29,001 nt of DNA from an uncultured virus (IMG/VR IMGVR_UViG_3300005326_000001) (taxonomy: Duplodnaviria > Heunggongvirae > Uroviricota > Caudoviricetes), in IMG/VR virus record IMGVR_UViG_3300005326_000001. One strand, given 5' to 3'. The notes beneath the pieces are model-generated. The model was given only the letters and a program-made list of their open reading frames with translations, made no database searches and had not been told where the DNA came from. This document shows, one piece after another, positions 4,192 through 23,564 of this stretch. Position numbers and translations under genes: made by a program. Position 1 is the first letter of the stretch. Each line of letters opens with the position of its first letter.

Positions 4192-4484
4192 TACAATAAC
4201 CCCCTTTTATTTGCATTGTTTACACCCGACAGAAACCTCAATTTTTCCTTTAGTGCTTCGATGGCAGCATTGGTTCTTTTTATCTCTTTCTCTGCCCATT
4301 CCGCAGAGGGTCTTTCAACTTTTTCCCAGTAAACAGTCCACCCAGATTCTGAACCACCCTCAGTATCATCCGCCCAAGCTCTTGCTGTCAATTCAGCATC
4401 TTCTTTGGGGTACACTGGGACATAACCCTCACGAGAGCCACCACGGAAGTATTTCTTAACTTTATACCAATGCACTTTAGCCAT
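4191..4484 (-). CDS. hypothetical protein
   Basis: 97 aa, AGGGGG RBS, TAATG coupling. Confidence 0.65.
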   Translation of the reverse strand: MAKVHWYKVKKYFRGGSREGYVPVYPKEDAELTARAWADDTEGGSESGWTVYWEKVERPSAEWAEKEIKRTNAAIEALKEKLRFLSGVNNANKRGLL

Positions 4485-4492
4485 ATAACCCC

Positions 4493-4660
4493 CTATCTTA
4501 GATTATGGCAATCACCATCTATTGCTTCCAATACATGTTCAAGAGCATGGCATCTTTCCGCATGGCACAAAATAGCATTGTGCCTTGTGGCATTAAGCCA
4601 TCTCTCTCGTTCTCTGTCCCTTGCGATAGTAACCACTACTTTCAATTCTTCCATTGTCAT
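4493..4660 (-). CDS. 55-aa hypothetical protein (not in the ORF track)
   Basis: MTMEELKVVVTIARDRERERWLN...; GGAGG RBS; ATGA overlap; fills the gap in the operon. Confidence 0.6.
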   Translation of the reverse strand: MTMEELKVVVTIARDRERERWLNATRHNAILCHAERCHALEHVLEAIDGDCHNLR

Positions 4661-4860
4661 ATAGCCTCCACTGTTCTGACAATCTTGCTGACTCCATACA
4701 GCGAAGACCTTAGGTTTTTTAGAATCTTGGACAGTGCGTTCGCAGTAACAGCACAGTAGATAAACTTCCGTAACCCATCCTTGTCCTCAATCTCAAGGAT
4801 ATACCCATGAACATTGCCAACTCTTTTCTTCTCTTCTTGAATCGTTGTACTTCCAAACAT
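4657..4860 (-). CDS. hypothetical protein
   Basis: 67 aa, AGGGGG RBS. Confidence 0.55.
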   Translation of the reverse strand: MFGSTTIQEEKKRVGNVHGYILEIEDKDGLRKFIYCAVTANALSKILKNLRSSLYGVSKIVRTVEAI

Positions 4861-7208: not shown

Positions 7209-7255
7209 TTTAAAATCCTCCGTTTGTTTGTTGTTTCCTCAACCTCATTAATATA

Positions 7256-7284
7256 AATATATGCGTTTGCATTGTGTATGTCAA
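7256..7284 (-). promoter_or_regulatory. sigma70-type promoter
   Basis: TTGACA-17 bp-TATATT; flanks AATAATAC and TATA are shared with the 5296-5324 promoter. Confidence 0.8.
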
Positions 7285-7383
7285 GTATTATTTTTATAGT
7301 GGGACAAATCACTCAACATATATAAGATTCTTATGCCATATACCCGCCCAACCCAACCCCCCCAAAAAAACAAAACTCACGTC

Positions 7384-7560
7384 CTTCTCTCTATGCAATC
7401 TCTCTATAACGAAGACTCACGAAAACCAAAACCACTATCTCTATCTCTATTCTCTATCCCTGTCTCTATAAACTATATATATAAGACTAATAACTCTCTA
7501 TAAGGTATCTCTATTCTATTAAGGACTTCTTATTAAGGTATATATAACTCAGTAAGGTAT
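7384..7560. repeat. strand-skewed CTCTAT/TAAGGTAT repeat tract
   Basis: Multiple ctctat units; TAAGGTAT at 7501, 7534 and 7553 (variant TAAGGACT at 7520). Confidence 0.7.
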
Positions 7561-7577
7561 AGGTTCTTTGCTTTGTA

Positions 7578-7605
7578 TTGACAAAATTCCAATATGTCTT
7601 ATAAT
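7578..7605 (+). promoter_or_regulatory. sigma70-type promoter for the terS unit
   Basis: TTGACA-16 bp-TATAAT. Confidence 0.7.
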
Positions 7606-7638
7606 AAGGGGGTAACTCTAACGTGGAGGGTACAACAC

Positions 7639-7806
7639 ATGGCTACACCGATTAAACCTACACCAGTGCTATCGTTCAGACAATGGGTATCATTCTGTAA
7701 AAACCTCCAGAAGAACGAAAAACACAAAGAAGAACTAATTGTCCGTCCCATATCCCATGAAACAATAGAACTAATCAGACAAATAGAGAGAGAACACCTT
7801 GCTTAA
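7639..7806 (+). CDS. 55-aa protein, MATPIKPTPVL N-terminus (resembles small GNAT-associated antitoxin-like proteins)
   Basis: GGAGG RBS before ATG 7639; family resemblance is from memory only. Confidence 0.5.
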   Translation: MATPIKPTPVLSFRQWVSFCKNLQKNEKHKEELIVRPISHETIELIRQIEREHLA

Positions 7807-8665: not shown

Positions 8666-8705
8666 CATAACTTTCGTTTGGTTTCTGTAGTGTTATAGCA
8701 ACTCT

Positions 8706-9112
8706 ACTATATCCAGCCCCTTTTCGGGTCTCAACCCCGCAATTTTTGATACTTCCTTTGGGATTCCAAAGTTCTCTTTGCTGTATATGGGTATAAACGT
8801 GTGTCTTGACAGGGGTGTATGTGGGTGTATTTAGCACTAATATCCATGACAAAACAAACGAACGTTAGGTTTATAGGGTATCTGATCCCCCTTGTGTTTG
8901 GTATCTGGATTCGGGTATCTGGACACCGACAGAAACCCAGATTTTTTTCACCCTCTCCAAGGTGAGTTAAGTGTATATGTTATATAGGTTTACGCATTTT
9001 AGTCGCGAGACATAGTGAAATCACTATATCAGACCCCTTGATTTTGGGGCAAAAACAGGGTAAAATAAGTCTCACCCCCGTATTTTTGGATACTTTCTGT
9101 GATATATATCAC
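8706..9112. repeat. non-coding region with an imperfect direct repeat and palindromes
   Basis: actatatc..cccctt..gtctcaNccccgNattttt(g)gatacttNct at 8706-8757 and 9023-9098; tandem ggtatctgga; palindrome gtgatatatatcac at 9099-9112. Confidence 0.6.
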
Positions 9113-9214
9113 AAAATTAGGGTGTTTAACTGATCGGTCAAATCGCTGTAAGTCGTTGGTAATCGGTTGAACATTTTATATAGGGGAAATGCTATATGAA
9201 GTGTCAGGGGAAAT

Positions 9215-9243
9215 AAAAAAGGGGTGAAGGATTAGTTCACCCC
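9215..9243 (-). terminator. Rho-independent terminator
   Basis: GGGGTGAA/TTCACCCC stem plus T6 on the minus strand. Confidence 0.8.
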
Positions 9244-9271
9244 CCAGAAGAGACCGCTTTTCTGTGAATTA

Positions 9272-9760
9272 TTACATATCCAGTTGTTGGTTTTTCCTGT
9301 CGGGCGTTTCCTCGAACATGGTATTTAGTGAAGCATCCTCTTCGGGGATTGCCCCGTCTGTGTCGTACTCTTCCCAGAGTTCGGATATAATCTCGATTAT
9401 ATAGTCCTCCAGTCGGGAAGTGTCAAAGGATACAGAGATCAAGTTCCCCTGATCTCCATATTCATCTTCCAGTCCCTCCCTTGTCGCCTCGATTAACCAG
9501 TCTTTATCTATCTCTGGGTTTATCCCCCTTTGCCCTGAGTTTACCACCTCAATTTCGCAATAATCGGGGAGACAACCAGCCAATAGGAATTTAAGCCCGT
9601 CTAACCTGCCTTCAGGATCGTAGGTTTCCATATCCGCGAATAATGGAAGAATACCGTCGTGTAACTCGACCCTTAATATAGGAAGGGATTTAAGGGTATC
9701 TAAACGTTCCTGTAACTGTTCGGTAATCACGACTCGACCTCCTGTCTTGTTTGTGTCCAT
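9272..9760 (-). CDS. acidic hypothetical protein
   Basis: Very D/E-rich; start may be GTG 9730 (GGAGG RBS, GTGA overlap). Confidence 0.65.
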   Translation of the reverse strand: MDTNKTGGRVVITEQLQERLDTLKSLPILRVELHDGILPLFADMETYDPEGRLDGLKFLLAGCLPDYCEIEVVNSGQRGINPEIDKDWLIEATREGLEDEYGDQGNLISVSFDTSRLEDYIIEIISELWEEYDTDGAIPEEDASLNTMFEETPDRKNQQLDM

Positions 9761-12903: not shown

Positions 12904-13285
12904 GTGTTTTCTTCATTATACTGCATAATTCCGCAAAATAGTTATAAATTGACTTTGCGCAATGCGATATAAGGCACGATCTCCAGGCGATCCGATATAT
13001 AACACGCCTGAAAACAGGACAGGACAAGGGGAGGAATAAGGATATAGAGATATAGCAAATAAACTATACCCCCAAGTGGACACAGGGGAGGTAAGCGAGT
13101 TCTCTTCTTTCCTACCCTCTTTTCAAGTCTGTCTTATTTTCTCTCAAAATCTCTTGACCCCCCTTCTCTCTCGGTTTAGCTTCTCCCCCGCTCTTGGTTA
13201 TGGGTCTATCTTTTTCCCCTATGTGGCAATTCCATATTCGCAAATTTTTTCTGGGATATTTTTTGTCAAAATATTTGGACTACTA

Positions 13286-19601: not shown

Positions 19602-20329
19602 AGATAATCTATGAACCCCGTGGTGCTGCCCGCGAGTATGCAGAATTGGCGTTAAATCACTATCTGGGGTGTACGCACCAGTGTTCCTACTGTTACGTCC
19701 CGAATACTTTACATATCTCCAAGGAGGACTATTTTGGCGAACCTGCTATGCGTGAAGGAATAATTGCCAAAGTTGCTTCCGATGCCAAATATCTTGCCGA
19801 CAATGGCTGTGATTCCGAGATACTTCTTTCTTTTATTGGTGATCCATACCAGCCCTGCGAAACAGAACTGGGCTTAACCAGACAGATTATTGAGATTCTT
19901 ATGCGGTATAACCTTAGATTTACCGTACTCACGAAGGGTGGCACAAGGGCGTGTCGTGACTTCGACCTGTTTGAGAAATATGAGAAGTGTAGTTTCGGTA
20001 CAAGCCTTGTATTCTCCCACAATGACAGTGCCACCAAATACGAACCTAACGCTGCCTCGGTTTCCGACAGGCAGGATGCCGTAATGGAGGCGAGCAAAAG
20101 GGGCATTAAGACGTGGGTATCCATGGAACCAGTTATAATACCCGAAGAAGCATTAGATGTTTTGGTATTCTTGGGAAAAGACGTAGATTTCTGGAAAATA
20201 GGTAAAATTAACCACAACAAGGAACTGGAGAGCAGGGTGGATTGGGCAGGGTTCAGGGAAGAAGCGAAGAGAATACTGGATAATATGGATGCTAAATACT
20301 ATATCAAAAGGAGTTTAAGTGAATTATGA
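19598..20329 (+). CDS. radical SAM protein (SPL-like phage family)
   Basis: GCTHQCSYCY (CxxxCxxC), DPYQP.E, ILTK-like VLTKG, TWVSMEPVI. Confidence 0.85.
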   Translation: MKIIYEPRGAAREYAELALNHYLGCTHQCSYCYVPNTLHISKEDYFGEPAMREGIIAKVASDAKYLADNGCDSEILLSFIGDPYQPCETELGLTRQIIEILMRYNLRFTVLTKGGTRACRDFDLFEKYEKCSFGTSLVFSHNDSATKYEPNAASVSDRQDAVMEASKRGIKTWVSMEPVIIPEEALDVLVFLGKDVDFWKIGKINHNKELESRVDWAGFREEAKRILDNMDAKYYIKRSLSEL

Positions 20330-20781
20330 TTAAATCTATTTATCTTCGCAAGTTCACAATACCCGTACCCATGCCAACAGGGGACGAAGAAGACCTTTAC
20401 CTGCCAGATATTGACTTCTGCGGGTACTTTCCCGTGAGCGGCATCCCAAACATCCATATCAAGAGTAACGATTTTCTTTCATTTTCCATCCCCGATGTGC
20501 CAACGAACACGTATATACGTGACACCGTAAACGACCATATTACACAGTGCTACGAAACTGCAGAGAAGCACATAAAAGATATTCTGGATACTGGATATAA
20601 TGGTATGATTTATCTTTTTATAACTCCCCATTTTAATGAAAAAACTTTCACTCAAACTACCATTGTTTCCGTATGCACCGAAAGCCCCAATCGGTTAGAG
20701 CCTAAGCTGGCAGACATGGGGATATATCACGAATGTCACACGGACAAATTGCGGGAAGCACCAAAACGGGAGGGGAAATGA
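20326..20781 (+). CDS. hypothetical protein (paralog A)
   Basis: MIKSIYLRKFTIP...; ATGA overlap. Confidence 0.6.
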   Translation: MIKSIYLRKFTIPVPMPTGDEEDLYLPDIDFCGYFPVSGIPNIHIKSNDFLSFSIPDVPTNTYIRDTVNDHITQCYETAEKHIKDILDTGYNGMIYLFITPHFNEKTFTQTTIVSVCTESPNRLEPKLADMGIYHECHTDKLREAPKREGK

Positions 20782-20981
20782 TTAGGTCTATTTATCTTCA
20801 CCGCTTTACCATGCCCACCCGTCCAGATATAGAAGAAACAATTACATGGAACGACCTGTCGTTCGTGGGTTACAAGCCATTAGATACTATTCCCCAATGT
20901 AGGATAGTTATTCCCGAAGGCATGTCCATAGAATATTACCCGGAGGGGTTACAGGAAGAAATAGATAGGGGAATTGGCTGA
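20778..20981 (+). CDS. hypothetical protein (paralog B, possibly frameshifted)
   Basis: MIRSIYLHRFTMP...; GGAGG RBS before ATG 20778. Confidence 0.55.
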   Translation: MIRSIYLHRFTMPTRPDIEETITWNDLSFVGYKPLDTIPQCRIVIPEGMSIEYYPEGLQEEIDRGIG

Positions 20982-21080
20982 ATTTATAAAATGGGAACAT
21001 AGATTACCTTGGTTCTTTAACAAGCGGTTTAGGCATGGTTAATAAAATAGCCCCTATTTTGCGGTTCCCATATTGCGTTT

Positions 21081-21540
21081 TAAGCCATTATCTCCCCTGA
21101 ACCACCCGGAATACTCTTTCGTTATTATCGTGGCACAGGCGTTGGGGATAAGCGGTAGAACGATGTAAAATTACACACACGTGAGTAGATATAGAAAACC
21201 CCAGACAGTGATGCACCTAAATGGTACATTTATCTGGGGTTTAATTTTTGTCAGTCCCTAATGGCTTATCTCTAATTTAGACAAGGTCGAATCCTCAGGC
21301 AAGTGAGTTATAGGGCAGTCGGATAATGTGGGCAATGGGCTAACGTGGCATCGCCTCCATTGTCCCTTGTCTCTTAACTTGGTTCGCCACAACACTGACA
21401 ATAAAAGTCCATGGGTTTATCCGTCAGCAGAATCCTTGCCGATAGATTTAATGCCATGGACACTATAACCGCCTGTTTGCCGGATTCTCTGCAAGAGCAG
21501 GCGGGGACTTTATACCCCTTCAGGGGATCAGCCTTGGGGG
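21081..21540. ncRNA. candidate large structured non-coding RNA
   Basis: ORF-free region with more than 10 complementary segment pairs of 6-10 bp, both nested and crossing (see findings); strand not resolved. Confidence 0.5.
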
Positions 21541-21577
21541 AATAAGTGAATGAAATATATCATATTTGACATATCTG

Positions 21578-21799
21578 TCAATAGCTGTCTATGAGTTGTT
21601 TGGCAAAATGTACAGTGGCATATTTATTGTCGCTATCTTCGACAATACTTTTGTCATAACCACATCCCTTGACCCACTTATGTTCATCTGCATCCCAAGA
21701 GGCATAACACTCAATAGCCACTGGTTTATTGTCCTCAATAGTCCACTTGGATGCTGCCGTATTGGTGGTTCGCCCGTAGGCACATTTAATCATCGGCAC
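21578..21799 (-). CDS. hypothetical protein
   Basis: 73 aa, AGGGGG upstream. Confidence 0.5.
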   Translation of the reverse strand: MPMIKCAYGRTTNTAASKWTIEDNKPVAIECYASWDADEHKWVKGCGYDKSIVEDSDNKYATVHFAKQLIDSY

Positions 21800-21988
21800 T
21801 TCATAACCCCCTGTGTAATTTATTATCAGTCATATGTTTACATAACCCCATGTCCCACGCCAAACTAACCCAAGCTAAATAGCATGGATTTCTAAGCTAA
21901 TTTGTCACGTATTCTGCCTATTATTCGTGACAAGATTTTCCTAAATTCCTCCATTTTCTTGTTTAGGAAAGTGGGCATAAACAGGAAA

Positions 21989-22017
21989 TTGCCAACTGCT
22001 GTGTTTCGGTATATATT
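21989..22017 (+). promoter_or_regulatory. sigma70-type promoter
   Basis: TTGCCA-17 bp-TATATT. Confidence 0.65.
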
Positions 22018-22048
22018 ATCGCATACACAATAATGTGCTAACGCAAAT

Positions 22049-22064
22049 TGTTTCACGTGAAACA
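22049..22064. promoter_or_regulatory. parS: parS site (ParB/Spo0J-binding palindrome)
   Basis: TGTTTCACGTGAAACA, a perfect consensus match; the palindrome extends to 20 bp (22047-22066). Confidence 0.85.
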
Positions 22065-22072
22065 ATGGAGGG

Positions 22073-22318
22073 TTGGTGATATACAACAAAAAGACAGGCA
22101 AAATACTCGTAGATGAAGAGATACTTCAGTTTGCGGCTTTCCTTGAACATGAAATAGAAACCCATAAGCGTGCCGTAGAACGCCTACTCCGCCTTATGGA
22201 AAAGGGGGAATGTCCCTACGGTGACGAAACCCCAGAGGACGAAGAAAGATGCGGTAATAACTGCGATAACTGCATAGAGTGCTTACGTGAGTTTGCATAC
22301 AGGGAGGAAAAGAAATGA
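22073..22318 (+). CDS. Cys-containing hypothetical protein
   Basis: GGAGG RBS; CPY...C...C..C..C. Confidence 0.6.
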   Translation: MVIYNKKTGKILVDEEILQFAAFLEHEIETHKRAVERLLRLMEKGECPYGDETPEDEERCGNNCDNCIECLREFAYREEKK

Positions 22319-22659: not shown

Positions 22660-22892
22660 CCACAACCATTACGATTTCATTTATCGTTGAGGACGGTGCC
22701 AAACCCAAGATAAGACTACAGGAAACAGGTGACAAAATACCACCCGATATGCTTATGAAACTCATGGATATTGCTGTGTCTAAATGGAAGGAAACCAAGA
22801 TACCCCCAAAACCACAGAATCCAATAAAAAATCCATTTAAGGGTGTTTCTGGACTTGAATTTTTTGATGAGGTCATTAGAAGTTTTCGTTGA
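22656..22892 (+). CDS. hypothetical protein
   Basis: GAGGAG RBS, ATGA overlap. Confidence 0.55.
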   Translation: MTTTITISFIVEDGAKPKIRLQETGDKIPPDMLMKLMDIAVSKWKETKIPPKPQNPIKNPFKGVSGLEFFDEVIRSFR

Positions 22893-22917
22893 CACCTTCT
22901 TTATTCCTTGCTATATT
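22889..22917 (+). promoter_or_regulatory. sigma70-type promoter with extended -10
   Basis: TTGACA-17 bp-TATATT, with TG one base before the -10. Confidence 0.7.
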
Positions 22918-22977: not shown

Positions 22978-23015
22978 CACCCCTACTGTAATGCTATAGC
23001 AGTGGGGGTGTTTTT
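22978..23015 (+). terminator. terminator-like hairpin in the ninB leader
   Basis: CACCCCTACTG/CAGTGGGGGTG 11-bp stem (one G-U) followed by T5. Confidence 0.65.
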
Positions 23016-23031
23016 ATGGGGAGATTCATCT

Positions 23032-23433
23032 ATGTCGCTTAACCCGAAGTTCTATGGTAACGTCACCGAGGGTAAACTCACCTTCGAGGACAAAGATTCG
23101 TTTTACAGGTATATCAATAATCTGGACGGACGTGTCGAGATAGTGGTCAAGAAGTTCTTTGACTCACGTTCCCAGAGGCAGAACCGCTACTACTGGGCGG
23201 TTGTAATTGACACTATCGCCAAGAGTACTGGACATACACCCACAGAGGTACATGATTACATGAGACAGCGATTCCTGACAGAATATGATGATAATTCGCC
23301 TATCCCGAAAGTCAAGAGTACGACCGATCTGAATACCGCAGGGTTTGTGGAGTACGTGACAAATATTGTCAGGTGGGCAAGTTCCGATATGGGGATATAT
23401 ATACCGGAACCGCATGAGACAGACTGGAAATGA
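23032..23433 (+). CDS. NinB/Orf-like recombination protein
   Basis: RSQRQNRYYWAV...IA...G....EVH...KSTTDLNT..F.EY...I..WA...GI.IP. Confidence 0.8.
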   Translation: MSLNPKFYGNVTEGKLTFEDKDSFYRYINNLDGRVEIVVKKFFDSRSQRQNRYYWAVVIDTIAKSTGHTPTEVHDYMRQRFLTEYDDNSPIPKVKSTTDLNTAGFVEYVTNIVRWASSDMGIYIPEPHETDWK

Positions 23434-23475
23434 TGTACCTATATTGGGGACAAATAGGTCAGTTTTGGGTACGAT

Positions 23476-23510
23476 AAAAAAAGAGACCCATGGATTTCTC
23501 CACGAATCTC
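23476..23510 (-). terminator. Rho-independent terminator
   Basis: On the minus strand, GAGATTCGTGGA-GAAA-TCCATGGGTCTC (12 bp including G-U pairs) plus T7. Confidence 0.8.
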
Positions 23511-23564
23511 CTTCCTCTCACAGTGCCACTGGTTTAATTTCATCCAGTCCGCCATGAAAGGTGC

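Follow-up and report, generated by a model that had tools for sequence, protein, structure and literature searches.

Do the hairpins crowded into a long gap between two converging phage genes belong to an RNA that has a gene of its own and, if so, on which strand and of what kind? This question is raised by a 29,001-nucleotide (nt) stretch of an uncultured Caudoviricetes virus (IMG/VR record IMGVR_UViG_3300005326_000001), the whole of which is referred to here as the window. Its 596-nt gap at 20982-21577 lies between converging genes, i.e., the end of a plus-strand operon and a minus-strand gene for a protein of 73 amino acids (aa). An earlier reading of the letters alone (the sequence-only reading) had proposed that positions 21081-21540 specify a single pseudoknot-rich RNA of ~460 nt, comparable in kind to the phage-associated ROOL and GOLLD RNAs. 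We found that the observation behind this proposal held, since the stretch is noncoding and rich in complementary segments, whereas its interpretation was only partly supported and the 460-nt pseudoknotted fold was not. The core of the gap has excess structure and a high G+C content and carries consensus transcription signals on both flanks. Our preferred reading, which is tentative and held with somewhat less than even confidence, is that this core may be an independently transcribed minus-strand gene for an orphan noncoding RNA (ncRNA) of ~360 nt that would act through exposed loops. An above-chance structured block without coding potential and with gene signals of this kind is a plausible candidate, and, if real, it would be a phage-encoded ncRNA gene.

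The gap is noncoding and enriched in complementary segments

The stretch is noncoding. As the sequence-only reading had stated, no open reading frame (ORF) with a start codon and at least 60 aa overlaps 21081-21540, and the stop-to-stop frames overlapping this interval reach 61 aa at most. Across 20982-21577, we detected no credible ORF under four genetic codes (reading TAG or TAA as Gln, or applying table 4, opened nothing convincing) and no ORF of more than 14 codons with both a Shine-Dalgarno (SD) sequence and a start codon. Clear SD sequences mark the real small genes of this phage, whereas the gap has none. A decayed gene was considered and rejected, as comparison of 7 small ORFs with Pfam and of 13 stop-to-stop frames with PHROGs returned nothing meaningful (best match, E = 0.0067 over 24 residues).

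The 13 complementary pairs that had been listed for the region were all present at their positions, and 12 of them are perfect reverse complements; the pair GGGCAATGG/CCATTGTCC contains one G·T and pairs on the plus strand only, and a listed loop sequence, GTGGC, was located at 21345-49. Perfect inverted repeats were approximately three times as frequent as in shuffled sequence, consistent with the richness in complementary segments that had been described. More specifically, when perfect repeats in 21081-21540 were counted against 300 dinucleotide shuffles, there were 15 repeats of at least 7 nt (5.17 ± 2.13 in the shuffles, none of which reached 15), 6 of at least 8 nt (versus 1.35, with 2 of 300 shuffles reaching 6), and 2 of at least 10 nt (versus 0.07, with 1 of 300 shuffles reaching 2). 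The count of 15 was reached by 1 of 125 other 460-nt segments of the 29 kb and, at 115-nt steps, a few other segments had 14 to 16 repeats of at least 7 nt, so that the region is among the top few but is not unique. Direct repeats and iterons were not enriched in the region.

The region also folded better than its shuffled counterparts, with z-scores for a 501-nt stretch of -3.56 on the plus strand and -3.99 on the minus strand. In a sliding scan, the 240-nt segment 21241-21480 (plus strand) had a z-score of -3.73 and ranked third of 240 (window-wide, -0.33 ± 1.31). A hairpin in the left quarter of the region (21074-21164) was not significant (z = -1.73 and -0.58), and the structure signal is concentrated in 21196-21510. 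Base composition differed along the gap as well: the G+C content was 0.40 in the tail (20982-21195) and 47.5% in the core (21243-21547), compared with 41.6% for the window and 35 to 41% for six other gaps, placing the core in the top 4.7% of 574 segments. A raised G+C content in a long intergenic region is a classic pointer to structured RNA. When folded as single-stranded DNA, the region had a z-score of -3.12.

The predicted fold is a row of hairpins

Nested folding, which does not score pseudoknots directly, yielded the same domain backbone on both strands, i.e., the hairpin 21196-21242, a P4 domain, hairpins P3 and P2, and a weak P1 (Table 1). We assessed 14 helices in this way, namely, the 13 listed by the sequence-only reading and one added by us; 4 of them on the plus strand or 5 on the minus strand had a probability of >0.5, and 9 had a probability of ≤0.06. 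The proposal that the region is rich in pseudoknots was not borne out by this folding, because among the crossing pairs both arms are mostly unpaired only for the loop-loop pair GAATCC/GGATTC, and in each of the others at least one arm is mostly paired. Nor are the stems predicted to abut as in multiway junctions; instead, they stand as individual hairpins in a row, with linkers of 5 to 7 nt between them. A single 460-nt fold is likewise disfavored, since 21081-21195 is part of the plus-strand operon's 3' end, which lies ahead of the terminator described below.

On the minus strand, P3, P2, the P4 closing stem, the helix AGACAAGG/CCTTGTCT, and the terminator were predicted at probabilities of 0.87 to 1.00. 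Within P2 on this strand, an inner stem (UUGC/GCAA) closes a 10-nt loop containing GAAUCC (21487-21482); the hairpin has a folding energy of -20.4 (z = -3.41) on the plus strand and -16.6 (z = -2.41) on the minus strand. P3 ends on the minus strand in a 7-nt apical loop, AGGAUUC (21436-21430), its inner stem uses G·U pairs on that strand, and its z-scores are -4.24 (plus) and -4.43 (minus). The P4 closing stem has a probability of 0.66 to 0.81 on the plus strand and 0.91 to 0.95 on the minus strand, and the interior that it encloses is strand-dependent. On the minus strand, this interior consists of the stem AGACAAG/CUUGUCU and a hairpin at 21321-21365, whereas on the plus strand it becomes one long G·U-rich hairpin (21298-21388); for 21296-21392, the energies are -37.9 (z = -3.60) on the plus strand and -26.5 (z = -2.41) on the minus strand. 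The pairing probability of AGACAAGG/CCTTGTCT is 0.02 (plus) versus 0.87 to 0.91 (minus).

The apical loops of P2 and P3 are complementary, and the unpaired probabilities of their two arms are 0.82 and 0.76 on the minus strand and 0.83 and 0.57 on the plus strand. A second GGAUUC copy (minus sense) at 21289-21294 is also mostly free. We infer from the openness of these arms that P2 and P3 might form a kissing contact. Overall, the folding models predict hairpins in a row and no more than one kissing contact, and the well-supported part of this prediction comprises 21248-21504 and the terminator hairpin.

Table 1. Predicted elements of the gap and its two borders (positions in the window)
Feature	Positions	Strand	Basis or remark
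Candidate ncRNA, 361 nt	21187-21547	-	Predicted start ~21547 (7 nt after the -10 box) to the U-run past the terminator; ends inferred
Putative sigma-70-type promoter, TTGACA, 16 nt, TGaTATATT; 11/12 plus extended -10 TG	21554-21581	-	Consensus match only
P1, weak 5' hairpin: CCCC/GGGG (21540-37/21518-15) plus small inner stem	21510-21546	-	Centroid fold; low weight
P2 hairpin, perfect 7-bp stem CCGCCTG/CAGGCGG	21469-21504	-	Pair probability 0.95 on both strands
P3 hairpin, perfect 8-bp stem GTCCATGG/CCATGGAC plus inner stems	21407-21461	-	Pair probability 1.00 on both strands
P4 domain, perfect 8-bp closing stem TTGTCAGT/ACTGACAA around ~140 nt	21248-21401	-	Folding
Candidate loop-loop (kissing) arm in P3 apical loop, complementary to 21482-21487	21430-21435	-	Both arms mostly unpaired
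Candidate kissing partner arm GAAUCC in P2 apical loop	21482-21487	-	Both arms mostly unpaired
Putative bidirectional intrinsic terminator	21186-21242 (hairpin 21196-21242)	Both	Folding; A-run before and U-run after on each strand
3' tail of plus-strand operon before terminator, outside structured core	20982-21195	+	Last plus-strand ORF ends at 20981
Last gene of plus-strand operon	Ends 20981	+	Left border of gap
73-aa ORF, small Cys-rich protein, lone gene	21578-21799	-	Right border of gap; upstream of hairpins, same strand

Transcription signals suggest a minus-strand unit

The putative minus-strand promoter points into the hairpins, and its -35 box overlaps the TGA at which the 73-aa ORF ends. 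This box forms one half of a perfect 6-4-6 palindrome, TTGACATATCTGTCAA (21566-21581), which has no other perfect copy in the window and could serve as an operator. The window contains 5 promoter-like sites matching at least 11 of the 12 consensus positions, compared with 1.04 ± 1.08 in 100 shuffles, only one of which reached 5. Three of the other four sites lie in noncoding gaps directly upstream of genes, at 7578 (plus), 7284 (minus), and 22889 (plus), and a 10/12 site at 5324-5296 (minus) heads a block of four SD-led small genes. As such sites stand before genes, the phage seems to use host-type promoters.

At the opposite flank, the putative terminator has the stem AAACCCCAGA/TCTGGGGTTT, which on the minus strand extends to 12 bp with an inner 7-bp stem and is followed by UUUUCUAUAU, and which on the plus strand is followed by UUUAAUUUUU (to 21252). 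The minus strand gives the clearly more stable hairpin (-27.2 kcal/mol, z = -6.38, compared with -22.2 kcal/mol, z = -4.32, for the plus strand), and the stem probability is 0.96 to 0.97 on both. A simple terminator scan missed this hairpin because its loop exceeds 8 nt. P2, P3, and P4 are without U-runs and are therefore not terminators. In summary, the core has several of the attributes of an independent ncRNA gene, i.e., a putative promoter of its own (on consensus evidence), a predicted intrinsic terminator on the same strand, and no translated ORF.

The candidate RNA delimited by these signals (21547-21187, minus strand) folds at -124.3 kcal/mol, and for a near-identical stretch (21548-21185) the energy is -124.4 kcal/mol and the z-score is -4.73, with 0 of 100 shuffles folding as well. 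We propose that a host-type RNA polymerase would start at ~21547 from the near-consensus promoter at 21581-21554, transcribe the four hairpin domains (the weak P1, then P2, P3, and P4), and end at the terminator 21242-21196, where transcription of the converging operon on the plus strand would stop as well. A stable string of hairpins, ~360 nt in length, would result. Its P2 loop GAAUCC may kiss either the P3 loop or the other exposed GGAUUC, which lies in P4, and the contact could be intramolecular or intermolecular. Such an RNA would not be expected to serve as a protein template but to work as a regulator, decoy, or scaffold, with its loops presented to a partner. The transcript of the 73-aa gene would also enter the hairpins unless stopped earlier.

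Searches for relatives

Rfam contains models of ROOL and GOLLD. A cmscan search of the window with 4,227 Rfam 15 models yielded no match at the gathering score and, when matches with E-values of up to 10 were admitted over 20900-22100, only 4 weak and unrelated matches. The suggested kinship with ROOL and GOLLD thus found no counterpart among these models even at that permissive level, and there was no Rfam match to 6S RNA, riboswitches, group I or II introns, or other curated RNA families. The earlier statement that the region is not a transfer-messenger RNA (tmRNA), RNase P RNA, or intron agrees with the absence of matches in Rfam and ARAGORN, the latter of which detected no tRNA or tmRNA across the 29 kb. 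A tRNA-like or attP fragment was considered in view of GGTCGAATCC, which resembles a T-loop, and was rejected, as this sequence is one U short and the window contains no tRNA. We likewise rejected a retron, a diversity-generating retroelement (DGR), an omega-RNA, and a type III antitoxin; no reverse transcriptase or nuclease was recognized, and there are no direct repeats.

Searches by sequence gave similar results. With blastn, we found no homologue in 50,697 phage records or 72,556 plasmids and no paralogue within the window (best E = 2.6). Exact probes found nothing in viral contigs (a 37-mer and a 19-mer); in metagenome contigs, one 20-mer found nothing and another found 3 loci matching over only 21 to 27 nt, which amounts to chance; in genome contigs, a 19-mer found nothing and a 20-mer found one locus matching over only 21 nt. 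An nhmmer search over 17 fetched loci returned 0 matches. When this single sequence, entered twice, was used to build a covariance model, the model recovered only itself in 13 loci plus the window and nothing in 5 whole viral records; empty results of this model carry no weight. A search with a 3-sequence alignment of relatives of the 73-aa protein located no viral loci. In 5 viral loci that do carry 73-aa relatives, other genes follow at once and leave no long gap.

The flanking 151-aa and radical-SAM proteins indicate why no relatives of the RNA came to light, as they barely have relatives themselves. The protein nearest to the radical-SAM neighbor is 58% identical, and no relative of this neighbor was found in viral contigs. 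For the 151-aa protein, encoded just upstream of the gap, zero homologues were found among 5.8 billion clustered proteins, and there was only a weak, sub-threshold HicB-like Pfam match. One groundwater-metagenome DNA run, which may be the source of the stretch, is the only public run that contains it, as one identical contig with no variants, and no RNA run is listed among the public sequencing runs containing it.

Weighing the minus-strand RNA against other explanations

Several results weigh against the reading of the core as a minus-strand ncRNA gene. About one promoter-like site of comparable quality is expected per window by chance, and the region ranked third rather than first of the 240 segments by z-score. 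No homologue was found in any collection searched, so there is no covariation, and in 5 of 5 viral loci carrying a 73-aa homologue no noncoding gap of at least 300 nt follows that gene. In addition, a second converging gap of ~600 nt (8666-9271) is hairpin-rich as well (z = -1.7 on the plus strand and -2.5 on the minus strand), and hairpin-rich gaps may simply be how this phage ends its operons. Finally, G·U asymmetry over 21243-21548 favors the plus strand: the fold of these 306 nt has an energy of -107.3 on the plus strand (14 of 99 pairs G·U, z = -3.74) and -96.7 on the minus strand (5 of 89, z = -3.09), a difference of 10.6 kcal/mol, and the plus strand gives markedly better folds of P2 and of the interior of P4. 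The sequence-only reading had called the G·U evidence for strand mixed, a description with which our data agree. The evidence on strand conflicts. The minus strand is favored by the promoter, the terminator, the P3 interior, AGACAAGG/CCTTGTCT, and the open kissing arms, and we tentatively prefer it because we gave transcription signals more weight than opportunistic G·U pairs.

The strongest competing explanation, which we regard as somewhat unlikely, is that the region is a passive end-of-operon region, where the hairpins would act only as terminators, read-through barriers, and 3'-end protection for the converging units, no separate RNA with a function would be made, and the promoter-like site would be fortuitous or a minor promoter of internal type. 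A location where genes converge, next to a strong bidirectional terminator, fits this explanation, as do the perfect Watson-Crick closing stems of hairpins that fold independently on both strands, the comparable gap at 8666-9271, the single promoter site expected by chance, and the failure to find homologues. However, one terminator would suffice for this purpose, whereas the gap holds ~300 nt of additional structure with the highest G+C content of all gaps and another converging gap (23434-23564) measures only 131 nt. Furthermore, the promoter equals those found before genes, and hairpins devoid of U-runs, such as P2, P3, and P4, do not qualify as terminators.

A spacer under no selection, in which short inverted repeats accumulated by template-switch or quasi-palindrome mutation, is decidedly unlikely. 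In its favor, the repeats include many that are perfect, exclude one another, and are symmetric between the strands; no homologue or paralogue came to light, and nothing points to conservation in a phage lineage that is hardly sampled. Against this, the G+C content is raised relative to other gaps, the repeats build four compact adjacent hairpins instead of scattered pairs, and a promoter and a terminator flank them. Phage genomes are, moreover, under pressure to lose useless DNA, which also speaks against a neutral spacer.

We also considered that the structured RNA might be made from the plus strand (~21243-21548), either because polymerase reads through the terminator or because a weak promoter, recognized by eye, is used (TTGTCA, 17 nt, TCTAAT; 21248-21276). 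The energies given above, including that of the hairpin 21298-21388, and the G·T of GGGCAATGG/CCATTGTCC, which pairs on the plus strand alone, argue for this possibility, which we nevertheless consider distinctly improbable. A scan found no upstream plus-strand promoter that matches at least 9 of 12 positions and has the key -10 adenine, and the one read by eye would start within P4 and lose its closing stem. A good plus-strand terminator precedes the region, there is no U-run after 21548 on the plus strand, and minimum-free-energy folding gathers G·U pairs opportunistically.

An element acting as DNA, such as a start of replication or packaging or a site of recombination, in which hairpins, cruciforms, or palindromes bound by a protein would be the working parts, would account for closing stems that are perfect on both strands, for the z-score of the single-stranded DNA fold, and for the palindrome at 21566-21581, but is very unlikely: neither direct repeats nor iterons are enriched, A+T is not in excess, the cumulative GC skew of the window turns near 13000 and not at the gap, and no terminase, integrase, or replication gene was recognized adjoining the region. 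Finally, a single ROOL/GOLLD-like RNA spanning all of 21081-21540 is hardly credible, since phage origin and the excess of complementary segments (crossing ones included) are offset by the lack of an Rfam match and of a nearby tRNA, by a terminator lying inside the interval, by a left part that is not significantly structured, and by helices that are mostly (9 of 14) at or below a probability of 0.06, all crossing pairs but one competing with stronger nested stems.

The minus-strand ncRNA gene thus remains our preferred, tentative reading. If it is real, it would represent a promoter-to-terminator structured RNA in a phage lineage so poorly sampled that even the neighboring proteins are orphans, and it would offer a compact test case for RNA assembly driven by loop-loop contacts or for decoy function in phages. 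Its present value, as a single sequence, is that of a cheap and well-defined candidate and not of an established new RNA class.

Genomic setting and other structured stretches of the window

The window is phage-like and encodes an RNA ligase, NinB, a RuvC-like resolvase, an SbcC-like protein, a tail protein, and many proteins known only as PHROGs. The nearest GenBank phage match of the RNA ligase is in a 735-kb uncultured phage (40% identity), and the relatives of this ligase found in a synteny search are at most 36% identical. The 73-aa protein is a member of an unnamed family of small proteins with four Cys residues, which measure about 60 to 110 aa, have conserved TNT and W.KGC motifs, and number 258 representatives at an E-value of 1e-3 or better; in the window's copy, the CxxC motif is without its second Cys. 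Neither PHROGs nor Pfam supplied a name for the 73-aa protein, and its AlphaFold model was too poor for use (mean pLDDT, 44.5). On the other side of the gap, directly upstream, overlapping ORFs of 151 and 82 aa occupy 20326-20981 (plus strand) and are paralogues, their N-terminal 45 residues being 42% identical (E = 3e-08).

Other parts of the window are structured or carry regulatory signals. The strongest folding z-score of the window (-6.75) was obtained for 4441-4680, within a region (4441-4860) of small, SD-led genes of the minus strand (4493-4660 and 4657-4860) that are headed by the promoter-like site 5324-5296. A 590-nt gap between diverging genes (7209-7798, G+C content 0.35) contains ~41 short direct repeats of at least 7 nt per 460 nt, against a mean of 10, together with a weak 19-nt tandem repeat (7434-7476) and near-consensus promoters at 7578-7605 (plus strand, 12/12) and 7284-7256 (minus strand, 11/12); it looks like a control region. 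The converging noncoding gap at 8666-9271 has many short perfect hairpins and a strong minus-strand terminator just after the gene at 9272-9760. To the right of the 73-aa gene, the leader and start of a plus-strand operon beginning at 22073 are strongly structured (21860-22200; z = -3.52 for the 341-nt fold), with the 240-nt segment 21961-22200 ranking second of 240 (z = -4.96) and a 10/12 promoter at 21989-22017. An 11/12 promoter with an extended -10 box (22889-22917, plus strand) is found just upstream of the NinB-like gene (23002-23433), and the 240 nt that follow this promoter fold with a z-score of -3.70.

Comparison with known systems

The passages on ROOL and GOLLD in 10.1101/2024.12.08.627333 on which we draw describe them as phage or prophage RNAs, often located near tRNA islands, with many GOLLD RNAs exceeding 800 nt, and as forming multimeric cages through kissing loops and A-minor contacts. 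The candidate resembles them in being phage-borne and noncoding, in having many hairpins, and in lacking an assigned function, and its exposed complementary loops could likewise give kissing contacts. In contrast to ROOL and GOLLD, it has neither an Rfam match nor a tRNA in the window; its core of ~300 to 360 nt is about half the size of GOLLD or less, going by the lengths in those passages; and, whereas the pseudoknots of ROOL and GOLLD rest on covariation, the candidate is a single sequence. It would be a long shot to regard it as the first representative of a hitherto unsampled class of phage RNAs of middle size (~360 nt), made early from a host-type promoter, in which one GAAUCC loop and two GGAUUC loops might drive a conformational switch or head-to-tail RNA-only multimers, as a small analogue of the ROOL/GOLLD cages or of the ring formed by phi29 pRNA.

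The pRNA of phage phi29 is a structured phage RNA whose mutually complementary hairpin loops allow ring formation. The candidate shares with it a phage origin, structure, and complementary hairpin loops, but it is approximately twice as large, has no Rfam match, and does not adjoin recognizable packaging genes. As with pRNA, a resemblance in mode of action is possible to protein-sponge RNAs of the CsrB/RsmZ type, which likewise are ~350 nt long and consist of hairpins in series, with an intrinsic terminator at the end. The candidate has, on the minus strand, two exposed loops containing AGGAU (21436-21430 and 21295-21289); however, known sponges have many loop GGA motifs where the candidate has two, there is no Rfam match, and its GGA triplets are not enriched (7 in 361 nt, near a rough chance estimate of ~5 to 6). 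Bidirectional terminators between converging genes match the hairpin 21196-21242, with its A-run before and U-run after, but they explain only ~60 of the 596 nt and not the neighboring 300-nt block of G+C-rich hairpins.

The closest layout is that of 3'-UTR-type small RNA (sRNA) genes. Enterobacterial examples such as DapZ and MicL are each transcribed from a promoter of their own, situated where the upstream ORF ends, and share its terminator. At ~360 nt and with four hairpin domains, the candidate is longer and more structured than is typical for such sRNAs, and no target complementarity was found within the window (best matches, E = 2.6 or worse). As in these genes, the upstream coding sequence ends within the putative promoter, strand and terminator are common to both, and there is no ORF.

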